From an uncultured Actinomycetota bacterium (GTDB taxonomy: Bacteria; Actinomycetota; Actinomycetes; Mycobacteriales; Mycobacteriaceae), in the NCBI GenBank assembly GCA_963800315.1, contig CAWDAS010000009.1, positions 266,461 through 330,460 on the forward strand: a stretch of DNA of 64,000 nucleotides. The letters are read 5' to 3'. The stretch's first letter is position 1; the number at the start of each line of letters is the position of its first letter. The position numbers and the translations under genes are program-made. Shown in pieces: positions 47,239 to 54,962 of the stretch. The notes beneath the pieces were generated by a model. The model was given only the letters and a program-made list of their open reading frames with translations, searched no databases and was not told the DNA's origin.

Positions 47239-47977
47239 GTGACGACTGACGCGAACGTCGGCGGTTTCGAGCCAATGTACGGTGAGGCCGAACATACCGA
47301 CGGACGGATCCCCTGGGACATCGGTGGCCCGCAGCCGGCCGTCCAGCAATTGGTCGCCTACGGCGGGATCCGCGGCGAGGTGCTCGACCCCGGTACCGGT
47401 CCCGGCTATCACGCGATTTACTACGCGGCACAAGGGTATTCGGCCACCGGCATCGACGGTTCGCCCTCGGCTATCGAGCGTGCCAAGCGCAACGCCGAGC
47501 GGGCCGGAGTGCAGGTTGATTTCCAGGTGGCCGACGCCACCGAACTGGAGGGGTTCGAGGGCCGGTTCGACACCGTGGTGGACAGCGCCTTCTATCACGT
47601 GTTCTTGAATGATAATGATGAAGCCGTCCAGACGCGGTACGCACCGGGCCACCAAGCCCGGGGCGCGGTTGTACATGTTCGAGTTCAGCCCGCACAACGT
47701 CAATGGCCTTCGGTGGACCGTCATCCCCGCCGACAACTTCGAGCGGGTGCTTGGCGCCGCCGGATGGCGCATCGACTACCTGGGTGGCACCACCTATCAG
47801 GCCCGCTTTCTGTCGGAGACGTTCGAAGCCATGAAGACGGTCGCGTCCGAGCAGCAGGGCGAGATCTTGCAGCGGATGCGTCCGCTGGTCCACCGGCTGG
47901 GCGTCATCGAACCGCTGTTGGAAGACCACCGGGTGCACCTTCGGGTCTGGTCCGTGGTGGCGACCCGGTTGGACTGA
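47239..47977 (+). pseudogene. Class I SAM methyltransferase (Rv0520/0521-like) frameshifted near 47641
   Basis: IPWDIGGPQP, VLDPGTGPG and DSAFYH in frame 1; HRATKPGARLYMFEF in frame 2; residues appear to be missing at the TRY|HRAT junction. Confidence 0.85.
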
Positions 47978-48271
47978 TTGCGAAAGCACGGTATTTCGTA
48001 ATCGCGCCCTAAGTACACAGTTGCACACTGCTATGAGTACACTCATGTGTCGATGTGAGAGCGACGGGCCGTCGGGGCCGTTTGCCCGTGTCCAGCGTGG
48101 CGAGTCGGGCTCAACCGGGATCTTGTCGCTTTCGCGCGACGGGATGCATCGTATGGTACGAGTTCGCCCCCGGTCCCCGGGGGGCACTGGCGCATTCCTT
48201 GACTACAGGTACACCGTGCGCGGGACCGAATTTGTTGGAATTGCGTTCGGGCGAGTAGAGAGAAAGGTTAT

Positions 48272-49960
48272 ATGTCCAGCATATCGGCCGCACGGGATAA
48301 TCTGGAACTGGAATTACACGACCAAATTTATGGTAACGACCCACTGTCGGACCGTGCGACGGAGCTGTATCGCGCCGAATATGTGATGAGTTTCGTCGAA
48401 AAATGGGATGAATTGATCGACTGGGACGCCCGTGCCGAGTCCGAGGGCCGGTTTTTCGTCGACGTCCTGCGCGCGCGCGACAAGCACCACATCCTCGACG
48501 TCGCCACGGGGACCGGCTTCCATTCCGTTCGCCTGACCGAAACGGGTTTCGACGTGACGAGCGCCGACGGGTCCGCGGCGATGCTGGCGCAGGCCTTCGA
48601 AAACGGCAGGAAGCGCGGCCTCATCCTGAAGACCGTCCAAGCTGATTGGCGTGAGCTGAACCGGAGCATCCAGGGCAAGTACGACGCCATCATCTGCCTG
48701 GGGAACTCGTTCACCCACCTGCACGACGAGCACGATCGCCGCCGCGCACTGGCCGAATTCTATGCCGCCCTGCGTCACGATGGAATTCTCATCCTCGATC
48801 AGCGCAATTACGACGAAATACTTGACCATGGCTTCAAGTCGAAGCACAAATATTACTATTGCGGTGATCAAGTCACGGCGGAACCGGAGTACGTCGACGA
48901 CGGCCTGGCACGGTTCAAATACACGTTCCCGGACGGCTCCGAATACACCTTGAACATGTTCCCGCTGCGCAAGTCCTATGTTCGCCGGCTCATGCGCGAA
49001 GCGGGATTCACGACCGTGCGCACCTACGGCGACTTCCAGGAAACGTATGAGGACAACGACCCCGATTTCTTCATTCACGTGGCGGAGAAATCGATCGACC
49101 TGGACGGGAGCGACGGGCCGGACGGCGAGGGCGGAACGACCGACAGCCTGCGCCAGTCGGAGGCCTACTACGACAGCACCGATGCCGACGCGTTCTACTC
49201 GATGGTCTGGGGTGGCGAGGACATTCATGTCGGCTGCTATGAGAACACCGACGACATCGGGGCGGCCGGCATCGAAACCGCGGACCGCATGATCGGCCGG
49301 CTGTCGAAACTCGACGGCGACACCGCCGTGCTCGATCTCGGGTCGGGCTACGGTGGCTCCGCGCGGCGCCTCGCCAAGGAGCACGGCTGCTCGGTCACCT
49401 GCCTCAACCTCTCCGAGGTGCAGAACGCGACCAACCGGGACAAGAACCGCCGCGCCGGCCTGGACCACCGGGTCCGGGTCCGTCATGGCAGCTTCGACGC
49501 CATTCCCGAGCCGGACGCCAGCTACGACGTGGTCTGGTCCCAGGACGCGATCCTGCACGCCACCGACCGCCGCAGGGTGCTCGAGGAGGCATTCCGGGTG
49601 CTCAAGCCCGGTGGCGAGCTGATCTTCACCGATCCCATGCAGGCCGACGACGTGGCCCATGGAGTGCTGCAACCGGTCTACGACCGGCTCAACCTCACCG
49701 ATCTCGGATCGATGCGCTTCTATCGCGAGGCGGCGCAGTCGATCGGCTTCGAGGTGCTCGGCCAGATCGACCTCGTCGGCAACCTGCGGACGCACTACCA
49801 GCGCGTGCTCGAGGAACTCGAGGTCCGCCGCGGCGAGCTCGAGGAAAAATCCTCAACGGAGTACCTCGACAACATGGAGATCGGTCTGAAGAACTGGGTC
49901 AGTGCGGCCGACGACGGTCAGCTGGCCTGGGGAATCCAGCACTTCCGGAAGCCGAGCTGA
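48272..49960 (+). CDS. Fused glycine/sarcosine N-methyltransferase and sarcosine/dimethylglycine N-methyltransferase (GSMT-SDMT)
   Basis: N-domain FVEKWDELIDW..ILDVATGTGFHSVRL..YDAIICLGNSFTHL..LDQRNYD..ARFKYTFPD; C-domain YYDSTDADAFY..WGGEDIHVG..LDLGSGYGG..WSQDAILH..FTDPM; GAAAGG RBS. Confidence 0.92.
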   Translation: MSSISAARDNLELELHDQIYGNDPLSDRATELYRAEYVMSFVEKWDELIDWDARAESEGRFFVDVLRARDKHHILDVATGTGFHSVRLTETGFDVTSADGSAAMLAQAFENGRKRGLILKTVQADWRELNRSIQGKYDAIICLGNSFTHLHDEHDRRRALAEFYAALRHDGILILDQRNYDEILDHGFKSKHKYYYCGDQVTAEPEYVDDGLARFKYTFPDGSEYTLNMFPLRKSYVRRLMREAGFTTVRTYGDFQETYEDNDPDFFIHVAEKSIDLDGSDGPDGEGGTTDSLRQSEAYYDSTDADAFYSMVWGGEDIHVGCYENTDDIGAAGIETADRMIGRLSKLDGDTAVLDLGSGYGGSARRLAKEHGCSVTCLNLSEVQNATNRDKNRRAGLDHRVRVRHGSFDAIPEPDASYDVVWSQDAILHATDRRRVLEEAFRVLKPGGELIFTDPMQADDVAHGVLQPVYDRLNLTDLGSMRFYREAAQSIGFEVLGQIDLVGNLRTHYQRVLEELEVRRGELEEKSSTEYLDNMEIGLKNWVSAADDGQLAWGIQHFRKPS

Positions 49961-50024: not shown

Positions 50025-51425
50025 ATGCCCTCGGCTCCCGGGAAGGCAGACGCGATAGACACCCCGCCGGCACTGCACCGAGGACTGTCGCAGCGGCAGC
50101 TCAACATGATCGCCATCGGCGGGGTGATCGGCGCCGGCTTGTTCGTGGGATCCAGCGTGGCCATTCGCGCCACCGGCCCGGCGGCCTTTCTCACCTACAC
50201 GCTTTGTGGTGCGCTGATCGTCTTGGTGATGCGGATGCTGGGCGAGATGGCCGCCGCGAATCCGGTGACCGGATCGTTCGCCGACTATGCGGGGCAAGCC
50301 CTGGGCGGCTGGGCCGGGTTCTCGGTCGGCTGGCTGTACTGGTACTTCTGGGTGATCGTCGTGGGGTTCGAGGCGGTTGCCGGCGGGAAGGTCGTCACCT
50401 ACTGGATCCATGCGCCGCTGTGGCTGACGTCGCTGTGCCTGATGACGATGATGACCGCGACCAACCTGTTCTCGGTGTCGTCCTTCGGCGAATTCGAATT
50501 CTGGTTCGCCGGAATCAAAGTGGCGACCATTGTGGCCTTTCTCGCCCTCGGCATCGCTTTCGCCCTCGGGCTCTTCCCGGGCCACCACCTGGATTTCAGC
50601 AACCTGACCTCGCATGGCGGGTTCTTTCCCAAGGGCGTGGGTGCCGTGTTCACCGCGATCGTCGTCGTGATCTTTTCCATGACCGGCACCGAGGTCGTCA
50701 CCATCGCCGCCGCCGAAAGTCGTGATCCCGAGCGCGCGGTGCAGCGGGCGATGAACTCGGTGCTGGTGCGGATCGCCATCTTCTTCGTCGGCTCGGTGTT
50801 CCTGATCGTGGTGGTACTGCCATGGGACGCCGTGCAGGCCGGCAGCTCGCCGTATGTCGCCGCGCTCAGGCACATGGGCATTCCGGGTGCCGACCAGATC
50901 ATGAACGCGGTCGTGCTCACCGCGGTGCTGTCCTGTCTGAATTCGGGCCTGTACACGGCGTCGCGCATGCTGTTCGTGCTCGCCACCCGCGGGGAGGCGC
51001 CGGCACGGCTGGTCACGATCAGCGCGCGCGGGGTCCCCGCGGTGGCCATCCTGGCCTCGTCAGCGGTGGGTTTCGGTTGCGTCGTCATGGCGTGGTCCGC
51101 GCCGCGCACGGTGTTCACCTTCCTGCTGAATTCGTCGGGCGCCGTCGTGTTGTTCGTCTACTTGCTGATCGCGCTGTCGCAGATCGTGCTGCGCCGCCGG
51201 ACGCCGGAAGAAAAGCTGCGGGTCAAGATGTGGCTCTTTCCGGGGCTGTCGATCCTGGCCGTGGCCGGCATCGTGGCGGTGTTGGTGCGGATGGCGTTCG
51301 ACCACGCCGCCCGCAGCCAGCTCTGGCTTGGCCTGCTGTCGTGGGCGGTGGTGATCGGGTTGTATTTCGTCGCCCGCTCCCGCGGCCGGATGCGCGCCGG
51401 GCGCGAGATTGCTTCCAACGATTAA
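50025..51425 (+). CDS. gabP: APC-family amino acid permease (GabP/Rv0522-like)
   Basis: MIAIGGVIGAGLFVG, LGEMAAA, FGEFEFWF, LNSGLYTASRML. Confidence 0.9.
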   Translation: MPSAPGKADAIDTPPALHRGLSQRQLNMIAIGGVIGAGLFVGSSVAIRATGPAAFLTYTLCGALIVLVMRMLGEMAAANPVTGSFADYAGQALGGWAGFSVGWLYWYFWVIVVGFEAVAGGKVVTYWIHAPLWLTSLCLMTMMTATNLFSVSSFGEFEFWFAGIKVATIVAFLALGIAFALGLFPGHHLDFSNLTSHGGFFPKGVGAVFTAIVVVIFSMTGTEVVTIAAAESRDPERAVQRAMNSVLVRIAIFFVGSVFLIVVVLPWDAVQAGSSPYVAALRHMGIPGADQIMNAVVLTAVLSCLNSGLYTASRMLFVLATRGEAPARLVTISARGVPAVAILASSAVGFGCVVMAWSAPRTVFTFLLNSSGAVVLFVYLLIALSQIVLRRRTPEEKLRVKMWLFPGLSILAVAGIVAVLVRMAFDHAARSQLWLGLLSWAVVIGLYFVARSRGRMRAGREIASND

Positions 51426-51849
51426 GCAGTCTGCTTCCGGTTGGCGTATCACGCGTCACCTCACCGGCGCGCAGTGCTAGTGGACTTGGCTCACGATTTG
51501 AGGTCCGCGGTGGTCGCAGCGGGTTGAGCTGTTGTTTTTCGGTTTGGGCTGCTGGGATGTGCGCACTGAAGTCGGGGGCCGGGGCTGCGCTGGTGGCCAA
51601 TGTGGGCCTCGTGTAGACCGCCTTGGGCGCGACCGCGGTGTAGATCGTGTGGTTTTTTTCCGACGTGGATCGCTGAGGTCGAGCAGCGTGGTTGGGCGCA
51701 GGATGGAGCGTGGGTGGCCGTGCTGATGGCTGCAGTGGGGAGCGTTTGGGGGCCAATCAGGCGGTCCGGCTTGGCCAATGATGACGGTCCCACCCCGGGC
51801 GCGGTTTGGGCAGCCGAGGGTTGTCGTACCCGGCTGCGATGATGGGGTT

Positions 51850-53145
51850 ATGTCGTCGACCGCATCGTTGGGCTCTGCATCGTTGGGCTCTGCATCGTTG
51901 GGCTCTGCATCGTTGGGCTGTGGGGCGACGCGCCCTGGCCAGCGCCTTGAGGTGCTGTTCGAGGAGTTGGCGGAGTTGGCCGGTCAGCGTAACGCGATTG
52001 ATGGGCGCATCGTGGAGATCGTCGCCGAGCTGGATCGCGACGAGCTGTGCGGCGCCACGGGGGCACGGTCGGTGCAGGCGTTGGTGGCCTGGAAGCTGGG
52101 CTGGTCCTCGGCAAACGCCCACACGATCAGCACCATCGCGCGCCGGCTTGAGGCGTTTCCGCGCTGTGTGCAGGGCATGGCCGAGGGTCGACTGTCGCTG
52201 GATCAGGTCGGCGTCATCGCGGCGCGCGCCGGTGAGGGATCTGATGAGCATTACGCGCAGTTGGCGCGCTGCGCCACGGTCAACCAGCTGCGCACCGCGG
52301 TCAAGCTGGAACCACGACCGGCACCCGATTCTCGGCCGCAACCGCAACCCTCGATCACCAAGACCTCCAGCCAGGAGTTCAGCTGTTGGCGGATCAAACT
52401 TGCGCACCCCGAGGCGGCGAAGTTCGACGCGGCGCTGGCGTCTCATCGTGATGCGCTGATCGCCCAGTGGAAGCACGATCGCGGCACTGGGGAGGCCGCC
52501 TCAGAGATCGCGCCGCCGCCCCCGGGCACCCTCGAGGCGTTTATGCGCCTGGTCGAGGCCGGATGGGATGCCGAGGCCGCGCGGCGGCCACACGGGCAGC
52601 ACACCACGGTGGTGGTGCACGTCGACGTTGCCCAGCGCGCCGCCGCGCTGCATCTGGGTCCGCTGCTCACGCAGGCCGAACGCCGATACCTGACCTGTGA
52701 TGCCACGTGTGAGGTGTGGTTCGAACGTGACGGCGAGGTCATCGGCGCCAGCCGAGCGACCCGCCAGATCAACCGGCGGCTTCGCCGCGCGCTCGAGCAC
52801 CGCCAACCCACCTGCGCGGTTCCCGGCTGTGGTGCGACCCGCGGTCTGCACGCACACCACATCCGGCACTGGGAAGACGGCGGCCCCACCGAGTTGGCCA
52901 ACCTGGTGCTGGTATGCCCTTATCACCACCGGCTGCACCACCGCGGCGTCATCACCATCAGTGGACCCGCGGTCGATCTCATCGTCACCGACAGCGCCGG
53001 GCGATCGCTGCGCGCAGGATCGCTCGCGCGTCCGCCCACCCTTGCCCCGCCCGCCGTCCCGCCGTGCCCCGGGCCCACCGGCGAGCGCGCCCACTGGTGG
53101 TGGTACGAACCCTTTCAGCCGCAGCCACCACCAACAAACAACTAG
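51850..53145 (+). mobile_element. DUF222-HNH endonuclease (13E12-related, Rv1765c/Rv2015c type)
   Basis: LFEELAELAGQRNAIDGRIV; CAVPGC..HAHHIRHWEDGGPTELANLVLVCPYHH; WWWYEPF tail. Confidence 0.88.
51862..51919 (+). repeat. 15-bp tandem repeat GCATCGTTGGGCTCT, 3 full copies plus 13 bp (ASLGS)
   Basis: Directly visible; in frame at the HNH N-terminus. Confidence 0.95.
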
Positions 53146-53623: not shown

Positions 53624-54019
53624 TCAGCCGGTCTTGGTCAGCAGCACCGCTTGCTCGAACGGCAGTCTGGTGAAGATCGGCCGCCATCGGGGGGTGACAT
53701 GCGGTGCCGCCTGCGCCTTGCTGACCACCCTCGGGTCGGTGACGCCGAAGGTCTTTCCGTAACGACGCATCCGCCCCCCGCCTGCCGCGGTGATGTTTTT
53801 CAGCCAGTCGCGGTTGGGACCGTAGCTCAGCAATATCGCCACCCCGGGGCGCCCGTCGATGTCGGCGCTGAATACCGCTAACGGGGTGCAGTAGGACTTC
53901 CCGGAGCGCCTGCCGACGTGCTCGAGGATGGCGTGCGCCGGGATCCGGGCGGCCCACAGCCGCTGGATGGGGTTGGTGACATGCCGGTTGAACCGGGCGA
54001 GCCGTTGTGGAAGCTGCAT
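53624..54019 (-). CDS. F420-dependent (deazaflavin) nitroreductase family, copy 2 (Rv0523c-like)
   Basis: LEHVGRRSG, YGPNRDWLKN. Confidence 0.9.
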   Translation of the reverse strand: MQLPQRLARFNRHVTNPIQRLWAARIPAHAILEHVGRRSGKSYCTPLAVFSADIDGRPGVAILLSYGPNRDWLKNITAAGGGRMRRYGKTFGVTDPRVVSKAQAAPHVTPRWRPIFTRLPFEQAVLLTKTG

Positions 54020-54155: not shown

Positions 54156-54551
54156 TTACCCGGTCTTGGTGAGCAACACCGCTTGCTCGAACGGCAGCCT
54201 GGCGAAAACCCGCCGGACCCGGGATGTGACATGCGTTGCCGCTTCGGCCTTGCTGACCACCTGCGGGTCGGCGATGCCGAAGGTCTTGCCGTTGTGGCGC
54301 ATCCGCCCGCCGCCCGCCACGGTCAGGTTCTTCAGCCAGTCCCGGTCCGGGCCGTAGGTCAGCACAATCGCAAAGCCGGGCTTGCCGTCGACGGTGGTGC
54401 TGAACACGTTGACCGGTGTGCGGTACGTCTTGCCCGAGCGCCGTCCCGTGTGCTCCAGGATGGCGAACGGGGGCAGCCACCCGGCCCAGAGCCGCTGGAC
54501 CGGGTTGGTGACGTAACGGTTGAACCGGGCGAGACCCTGTGGCATTTGCAT
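54156..54551 (-). CDS. F420-dependent (deazaflavin) nitroreductase family, copy 1 (Rv0523c-like)
   Basis: MQMPQGLARF start; LEHTGRRSGKTYRTP, YGPDRDWLKN; 131 aa. Confidence 0.9.
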   Translation of the reverse strand: MQMPQGLARFNRYVTNPVQRLWAGWLPPFAILEHTGRRSGKTYRTPVNVFSTTVDGKPGFAIVLTYGPDRDWLKNLTVAGGGRMRHNGKTFGIADPQVVSKAEAATHVTSRVRRVFARLPFEQAVLLTKTG

Positions 54552-54622
54552 ACCGCTATCCAACCCGCGGACGGCTCCCGGTATCAACCCGCCATCTCGC
54601 GTCGGACGTCTAATGTCGTTCC

Positions 54623-54962
54623 GTGCCCGACTCACCGGGTGGCGAAGCCGCCCGGCGCGCCGAGGAGTTGCTGCGCGCCGAGGAGCTGCTGCGCGGGGAG
54701 GAGGAACTCGCCGCGGGGAAAGCCGTCACGGGGGAAGACGTCGAGCATGCCGCCGAACGGGCCGAGCGTGCCCACTAGCGTGACCTTGATGCGCACCGGC
54801 GTAGACCGGCGTCGCCACTACGAAGCCGGCGTCGTGCACGAGCGCGCCGCCGAAATTCAGGAACTCGCGGTTCAAGGGGGCCTTGGTGACGTCGCCGCTC
54901 ACCAACGCGCGGCGGATAGGGAACGAGAAGCCGCCCGCCGCGAGCACCTGGCAGCTCATTAA
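54623..54962 (+). pseudogene. Probable disrupted small charged helical protein
   Basis: MPDSPGGEAARRAEELLRAEELLRGEEELAAG..AERAERAH-TAG(54776)-RDLDAHRR, then +1 frame DRRRHYEAGVVHERAAEIQE..AARREHLAAH*. Confidence 0.55.

Follow-up and report, generated by a model that had tools for sequence, protein, structure and literature searches.

A fused glycine/sarcosine and sarcosine/dimethylglycine N-methyltransferase gene in mycobacteria and its conserved leader

Fused GMT/DMT genes, which encode a glycine/sarcosine N-methyltransferase (GSMT) and a sarcosine/dimethylglycine N-methyltransferase (SDMT) as one chain, have been documented in Actinopolyspora halophila, Rhodobacteraceae and Rhodospirillaceae (PMC7824335). 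Here we analyse a gene of this type in a 64,000-nucleotide stretch of DNA (the window) from an uncultured member of the Mycobacteriaceae (assembly GCA_963800315.1, contig CAWDAS010000009.1, positions 266,461 to 330,460 of the forward strand). An earlier note, made from the letters of this DNA, had read one of its genes as a single-polypeptide glycine-to-betaine synthase and had stated that the A. halophila gene is similarly fused, which is indeed published (Nyyssola et al. 2000, as cited in PMC7824335).

The A. halophila and window proteins have the same layout, in which one chain starts with the GSMT and ends with the SDMT domain, and both come from actinomycetes. The A. halophila gene clusters with MAT, MS, SAHase and MTHFR genes (PMC7824335), whereas the window gene does not. 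The one other actinomycete fusion in our set, from Streptomonospora halophila, is only 59% identical to the window protein and falls in a distant clade, so the mycobacterial gene is probably not an orthologue of the A. halophila gene by descent. The fused A. halophila protein reportedly has 565 amino acids, about the length of the window protein, and may be processed at its linker.

The closest non-mycobacterial relatives are instead found in Alphaproteobacteria (Rhodobacteraceae, Rhodospirillaceae, Hyphomicrobiales), which encode full-length proteins that are 63-70% identical and have the same domain order. These differ from the mycobacterial proteins in that their linker carries a conserved L-H-V-V-R-W-G-G motif, that their genes are usually linked to metK (MAT) and other genes of the S-adenosylmethionine (SAM) cycle (PMC7824335), and that no homologue of the mycobacterial leader described below precedes them. 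The structurally characterized Methanohalophilus portucalensis GSMT (MpGSMT; 5gwx, 5hil) and Galdieria sulphuraria SDMT (2o57) are separate rather than fused proteins, and molar K+/Na+ strongly activates MpGSMT, which has not been reported for the bacterial enzymes. A more distant parallel is provided by plant and nematode phosphoethanolamine N-methyltransferases, in which tandem class I domains likewise share three N-methylations that yield a quaternary amine; these enzymes act on phosphoethanolamine, are just 15-17% identical to the window protein and give no sign of a common fusion descent.

Domain architecture of the fusion protein

The fused GSMT-SDMT gene occupies positions 48272..49960 of the plus strand and encodes 562 amino acids plus a stop codon in one uninterrupted reading frame, with the GSMT domain first and a linker that lacks a stop codon. 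Its ATG is the first in-frame ATG and lies 5 nt 3' of a ribosome-binding site, GAAAGG (48262-48267). The 562-residue open reading frame (ORF) with two class I SAM-methyltransferase domains had been noted earlier; its coordinates are exact, and Pfam recognizes two separate class I SAM-methyltransferase stretches in the protein. Orthologues are 76-92% identical at the protein level, and at the DNA level they share 87-93% identity at codon positions 1 and 2 versus 53-70% at position 3, which indicates purifying selection on the gene. This selection is strong and acts on both halves.

The GSMT domain comprises residues 18-274 (48323..49093, plus strand) and spans positions 1-257 of the 259 in profile NF051855 with 468.8 bits, above the equivalog cut-off of 350. 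Its best match among solved structures is MpGSMT (5gwx, E = 4e-113), with 62.6% identity across 257 ungapped positions. We located in the window protein the MpGSMT contact residues named in the structural paper (PMC5146677). All five substrate contacts are kept (MpGSMT Asn134, His138, Arg167, Tyr206 and Met218 correspond to N145, H149, R178, Y217 and M229), as are all three SAM contacts (Arg43, Thr70 and Leu132, corresponding to R54, T81 and L143). The GSMT-specific betaine pocket retains five of six residues (D46, I49, D50, W51, N111), among them the counterparts of the key MpGSMT residues Asp35, Trp40 and Asn100 (D46, W51, N111), while MpGSMT His104 is replaced by R115; an H104K mutant of MpGSMT is more sensitive to betaine (PMC5146677). 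Both betaine and S-adenosylhomocysteine (SAH) inhibit MpGSMT (PMC3176816, PMC5146677). Sequence comparison thus gives good support to a predicted N-terminal glycine/sarcosine N-methyltransferase (EC 2.1.1.156) that would convert glycine to sarcosine and dimethylglycine.

The SDMT domain comprises residues 294-560 (49151..49951, plus strand) and matches NF041675 end to end (profile positions 10-277 of 278, E = 5e-91). The best solved-structure match of this half is the Galdieria enzyme (2o57), with E = 6e-66 and 41% identity, and Foldseek superposes the two with a TM-score of 0.89-0.91 and a root-mean-square deviation of 2.0 A. The Galdieria SDMT is reported to be active, in work by McCoy et al. 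from 2009. A C-terminal half that is a full-length SDMT homologue (EC 2.1.1.157), predicted to convert sarcosine through dimethylglycine to betaine, is well supported by sequence and model. The assignment of the two halves to these methyltransferase families, originally proposed from motifs, holds in the NCBIfam, solved-structure and Foldseek matches. In the hidden Markov model test of each half that the earlier note had called for, the GSMT half scores above its equivalog cut-off and the SDMT half, matched end to end, scores below it.

Between the domains lies an acidic Gly/Asp-rich linker at residues 275-295 (49094..49156, plus strand), to which AlphaFold2 assigns a predicted local distance difference test (pLDDT) score below 50. 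The linker sequence previously reported, SIDLDGSDGPDGEGGTTDS, is present at residues 274-292 (about 49091-49147). Among mycobacterial orthologues the linker varies in both length and sequence (spanning a region of about 12-30 residues), which suggests a tether rather than a functional motif. The AlphaFold2 model, built from 29 homologues, has pLDDT values of 80-98 in the SDMT half and treats residues 1-43 as disordered; its Foldseek TM-score to 5gwx is 0.78. Whole-chain Foldseek matches are two-domain phosphoethanolamine N-methyltransferases (5wp4, 4kri), aligned over their full length. As a separate observation, several distant relatives (L061, L062, L070, L073, L078) encode GSMT and SDMT as two neighbouring genes that share a frame; the tblastn alignment there reads through a linker stop codon that is followed by Met.

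Distribution, descent and decay of the gene

Full-length relatives that are 76-92% identical occur in Mycobacterium sp. HUMS_1102779, M. helveticum, M. marinum, M. ulcerans and M. liflandii, as well as in Mycolicibacterium hippocampi, M. palauense, several Mycolicibacterium strains and Mycolicibacillus parakoreensis. The M. marinum M protein (ACC39319.1; 80% identical, 562 residues), whose gene adjoins gabP on its upstream side, is already annotated as 'glycine-sarcosine methyltransferase', and other mycobacterial orthologues carry the RefSeq label 'glycine/sarcosine N-methyltransferase'. A genome scan identified at least 567 species with a relative, a count that pools fused and unfused forms. 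The suggestion that this is an unusual osmoprotection route for the genus is not supported by these comparisons, given annotated orthologues in M. marinum, M. ulcerans, M. liflandii, M. shottsii, M. helveticum, Mycolicibacterium and Mycolicibacillus. The fusion gene is sparse in the genus yet already recognized, and the enzyme type is characterized; only the leader is undescribed. The same DNA was also found in soil, wetland and salt-marsh metagenomes, and we found no RNA sequencing run that holds the window sequence.

Immediately downstream of the fusion gene lies gabP in M. helveticum, two metagenome-assembled genomes, M. marinum and five further metagenomic contigs (the two genes adjoin at loci L001-L003, L081-83, L169-171, L173 and L174, where L081 is the M. 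marinum locus), and most of these loci have an Rv0519c-like esterase upstream of the fusion gene. In M. kansasii (L084), the esterase and gabP are present and the fusion gene is absent, with a P-type ATPase gene ending 100 bp before gabP. Because gabP stays in place where the fusion gene is absent, the adjacency marks an insertion site rather than a functional link, and we set aside a functional connection to gabP on the grounds of the M. kansasii arrangement. The M. marinum locus differs from that of the window in carrying Usp and P-type ATPase genes upstream of the fusion gene. These two genes lie between the esterase and gabP in both M. marinum (L081:3027-6729) and M. kansasii (L084:3123-6900) and are absent from the window; the M. 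marinum fusion gene comes after the ATPase gene.

Several mycobacteria retain shortened or broken forms of the gene. The truncated forms have 288 residues in M. pseudoshottsii, 524 in M. shottsii and 334 in M. servetii. In assembly GCA_020179105.1, a search with the C-terminal 101 residues brought up a remnant next to gabP that consists of just residues 249-562 in three frame pieces (L086:5410-6360; also L087 and L088), and the same remnant occurs in many sequencing runs of this organism. This is a decayed pseudogene without a GSMT half. Its locus has a GC content of 68% and the M. tuberculosis-like order gabP, Rv0523c-like gene, hemL. We also observe that a PE gene and a 633-residue ORF without a Pfam match occupy the place of the GSMT half there.

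A comparable situation has been published for M. tuberculosis, in which Rv0520 (116 residues) and Rv0521 (101 residues) form one interrupted coding sequence, 'Dimethylglycine N-methyltransferase', that is broken in all M. tuberculosis complex genomes examined (PMC2277376). The M. tuberculosis complex copy thus differs from the window gene in being reported as broken. On the basis of that report and of the likeness to the GCA_020179105.1 locus, Rv0520/21 are most likely the remains of the fusion gene in M. tuberculosis. The earlier premise that no such gene lies between Rv0521 and gabP has to be revised, since Rv0520/Rv0521 have themselves been published as an interrupted remnant and a similar remnant sits beside gabP in GCA_020179105.1. 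Our search for GabP homologues returned no identifiable M. tuberculosis entry among the 120 matches listed.

Neighbour-joining analysis of 59 sequences unites every mycobacterial copy in a single clade (100/100 bootstraps), which nests among alphaproteobacterial fusions with Rhodomicrobiaceae and Hyphomicrobiales nearest; trees of each half taken alone agree. The distant clade with the actinomycete Streptomonospora halophila has 96/100 support. This monophyly within alphaproteobacterial fusions indicates one old inter-phylum transfer into the whole mycobacterial clade, followed by inheritance and repeated loss. Horizontal acquisition of Rv0520/21 was proposed in 2009 by Veyrier et al. (PMC3087520). 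Since fast growers carry the fusion gene in the same clade, the acquisition may be older than PMC3087520 inferred; alternatively, the gene moved within the family. Of the horizontal origin suggested at the outset, the part that stands is thus an old event for the entire mycobacterial clade, and the part that falls is a gain in the source organism, as the locus, promoter region and leader are common to other species.

Base composition had been an early hint of foreign origin, and the impression that the leader and 5' half are AT-richer than their surroundings proved correct: the leader has 62.9% GC and the GSMT half 58.4% (z = -3.8), with 62.8% for the fusion gene as a whole and 69.1 +/- 2.8% in the 44 other window genes. 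GC at third codon positions (GC3) in the GSMT half, 0.76 (z = -3.2), is the lowest of any gene examined, while in the SDMT half it has a normal, host-like value of 0.90. In the GSMT half, GC at second positions is 0.38, and F, Y, M, I, N and K make up 24.5% of residues versus 14.4% elsewhere. Both amino-acid composition and lower GC3 contribute to the low GC content of the 5' half. In the slow-grower orthologues (window, L001, L002, L003, L081, L089), GC3 of the GSMT half is 0.09-0.19 under that of the SDMT half, and in the fast-grower orthologues the gap is just 0.02-0.04; the halves that differ in GC3 nevertheless have one common phylogeny. The presence of the asymmetry in all slow-grower orthologues marks it as a trait of the gene lineage rather than of the source genome.

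Conserved leader and neighbouring genes

The fusion gene is preceded by a conserved leader, probably a 5' untranslated region (UTR), at positions 48051..48271 of the plus strand, which ends in the ribosome-binding site. Just upstream, alignment identifies a conserved block (48021..48043, plus strand) with a -10-like hexamer, TACACT (48038-48043), which reads TAGACT in most orthologues, and the sequence TTGCAC (48021-48026). A canonical sigma-70 -35/-10 pair formed by these two elements was rejected, the spacer being only 11 nt, and a promoter/terminator scan placed no promoter at this block.

The approximately 220-nt leader together with the -10-like hexamer has 72% mean column identity across slow-grower loci, and its conservation reaches fast growers in blocks. 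Pairwise leader identity is 0.59-0.73, as against 0.47-0.63 for four-fold degenerate positions in the fusion gene, and control regions are less conserved than the leader (0.36-0.54 further upstream, 0.41-0.63 in the downstream intergenic spacer). Matches to a leader profile are confined to the upstream regions of mycobacterial GSMT-SDMT genes (19 loci, with 5 strong and 2 weak further matches among added loci); there are none elsewhere in the window or in alphaproteobacterial loci. A reading of the leader as coding sequence was discarded, as alignment indels in the leader are not multiples of three. The conservation of the leader is real.

Candidate helices in the leader include GCGAC/GUCGC, which closes a variable insert, UUUCG...CGGGA, GGGAUGC/GCAUUCC and a hairpin immediately before the ribosome-binding site; compensatory changes occur in some of them. 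Two candidate helices pair 48141-48147 with 48192-48198 and 48214-48221 with 48243-48250. The RNAalifold covariation terms are about zero, and base pairs changed on both sides are not above shuffled controls (3 pairs in 13 leaders, with 223 of 500 shuffles as high; 7 pairs in 12 leaders, with 58 of 500). Single-sequence folding gives z-scores of -1.3 for the window leader and -2.7 for that of L008. Searches of Rfam 15 with the window, the leader and 10 orthologous loci returned no match at gathering thresholds and only chance-level hits at E <= 10. We tentatively raise the idea, which we consider rather doubtful, that the leader is a previously undescribed cis-regulatory RNA of mycobacterial GSMT-SDMT genes, riboswitch-like or salt-responsive, that gates betaine synthesis; SAM/SAH, betaine or ionic strength might be the signal. 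The leader might just as well consist of protein-binding sites or be an ordinary conserved UTR.

Downstream of the fusion gene, a GabP-type amino-acid permease is encoded at 50025..51425 on the plus strand (TIGR01773, 535 bits, under the cut-off of 678). The longest gabP ORF opens with a GTG at 49902, inside the 3' end of the fusion gene. Since its alignments to homologues begin at about residue 31-58, the ATG at 50025 is the likelier start. The promoter/terminator scan found no terminator-like site in the 64-nt spacer between the two genes.

Upstream, a small SAM-methyltransferase gene distinct from the betaine enzyme lies in two frames at 47239..47977 (plus strand), which are 77% and 75% identical to a single intact 247-residue M. 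kansasii gene (L084:2195-2938). Relative to this orthologue, an 11-bp deletion near 47640 breaks the frame, and the window copy is probably a pseudogene. The gene is missing at the M. helveticum, L002 and L089 loci. An apparent earlier view that 47239-47977 represents Rv0520/21 was rejected, as this is a separate small methyltransferase with an intact orthologue in M. kansasii.

The flanking genes comprise two acyltransferases, a GDSL lipase, the esterase, the broken small methyltransferase, GabP, a DUF222-HNH gene, two Rv0523c-like genes and hemL, and place the fusion gene in a core heme-biosynthesis region that is syntenic with Rv0511-Rv0527. The DUF222 and HNH endonuclease gene (13E12-repeat type; 51778-53145, plus strand) lies between gabP and the Rv0523c-like genes and is missing at the same position in L001, L002 and L086. 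It contains a perfect 15-bp x 3.9 tandem repeat (51862-51919) that encodes (ASLGS)n near the N-terminus. The tandem Rv0523c-like copies (53624-54019 and 54156-54635, minus strand) have no Pfam match and are 72% identical to one another; L001, L002 and L086 have one copy each.

Proposed function and its alternatives

We propose that the product is a bifunctional enzyme for making betaine from glycine, most likely for osmoprotection, and that the gene was acquired once from an alphaproteobacterial-type donor, a reading to which we assign a probability of roughly 0.8. In this scheme, the N-terminal GSMT domain would methylate glycine and sarcosine and the C-terminal SDMT domain sarcosine and dimethylglycine, with the flexible, non-conserved linker tethering the two. 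Three SAM-dependent N-methylations would lead from glycine to glycine betaine, so that each betaine would cost three SAM and release three SAH, presumably recycled by genes elsewhere. The conserved betaine pocket suggests that the GSMT domain may be subject to end-product inhibition, as in archaeal MpGSMT, and expression is probably controlled via the promoter-proximal block and the approximately 220-nt leader. The enzyme would most likely provide de novo osmoprotection to a mycobacterium that lives free in soil or wetland. The fusion would have entered the Mycobacteriaceae once, from the alphaproteobacterial-type donor, to lie upstream of gabP in slow growers, with later loss or decay accounting for its absence from M. 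kansasii, the truncated forms in M. pseudoshottsii and M. shottsii, the GCA_020179105.1 pseudogene and, according to the literature, the state of the M. tuberculosis complex. Domain identity, contact residues, purifying selection, synteny and phylogeny support this reading directly; beyond them, we infer that the enzyme is catalytically active and feedback-inhibited, that it has an osmotic role and that the leader takes part in regulation.

Several observations count against this proposal. The SDMT half reaches 305.4 bits against an NF041675 equivalog cut-off of 550, and the AlphaFold2 model of the GSMT half is of moderate quality only (pLDDT about 50-79). The roughly 10 kb annotated on each side lacks genes for SAM recycling (MAT, SAHase, MTHFR, MS). 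The tree drew on top-scoring matches only and left out A. halophila. In the sources searched, we found no enzyme assay, metabolite or transcript data for any mycobacterial copy and, in the searchable literature, no demonstration that any mycobacterium makes betaine de novo.

An active enzyme could serve an end other than osmoprotection, with betaine, sarcosine or dimethylglycine used mainly for thermo- or desiccation protection, as a methyl or nitrogen store, or as a sink that adjusts the SAM/SAH ratio. The organism comes mostly from ordinary soil metagenomes rather than hypersaline sites, no SAM-recycling genes or betaine transporter are linked nearby, and loss in host-adapted lineages would fit any environmental-stress role. 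We nonetheless consider such a purpose improbable: every characterized member of the pathway acts in osmoadaptation, many named carriers are marine or aquatic (M. marinum, Mycolicibacterium hippocampi, strain SCSIO 43805), and weak matches occur in salt-marsh and mangrove metagenomes. It seems very unlikely that either domain, or both, now acts on a different amine (for example beta-alanine, or GABA via the neighbouring permease) or is inactive, so that betaine is not the product. The sub-threshold score of the SDMT half and the conserved adjacency of the GabP-type permease would fit such a drift, but they are set against five of five MpGSMT substrate contacts identical in the GSMT half, an SDMT model matched end to end with the fold of the Galdieria enzyme at a TM-score of 0.9, a gabP gene that keeps its position in species without the fusion gene, and strong purifying selection on both halves.

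The origin of the gene invites a further alternative, a recent horizontally acquired island in the source organism, which would account for a GC content of 62.8% in a window of 69.1% and for a GSMT-half GC3 below that of every other gene examined. We regard this as scarcely credible, since M. helveticum, M. marinum and others match the window in locus, leader and promoter block, the mycobacterial copies are monophyletic (100/100), GC3 is host-like in the SDMT half (0.90) and the asymmetry between halves recurs in all slow-grower orthologues. Mobility genes do not flank the fusion gene, and the DUF222-HNH gene lies beyond gabP. A bifunctional betaine synthase of old alphaproteobacterial-type origin remains the reading that we prefer.

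The discovery value of the fusion itself is small: the description of the fused type dates from 2000, the M. marinum orthologue already has a name, and both the M. tuberculosis remnant and its horizontal origin appeared in print in 2008-2009. The leader is a candidate for how betaine synthesis is regulated in the mycobacterial GSMT-SDMT family. The locus further shows decay from environmental to host-restricted mycobacteria, in which the gene is intact, truncated, a frameshifted remnant or absent, and this series fits a reliance of M. tuberculosis on uptake through ProXVWZ. M. marinum offers a tractable test case for de novo betaine synthesis in these bacteria.

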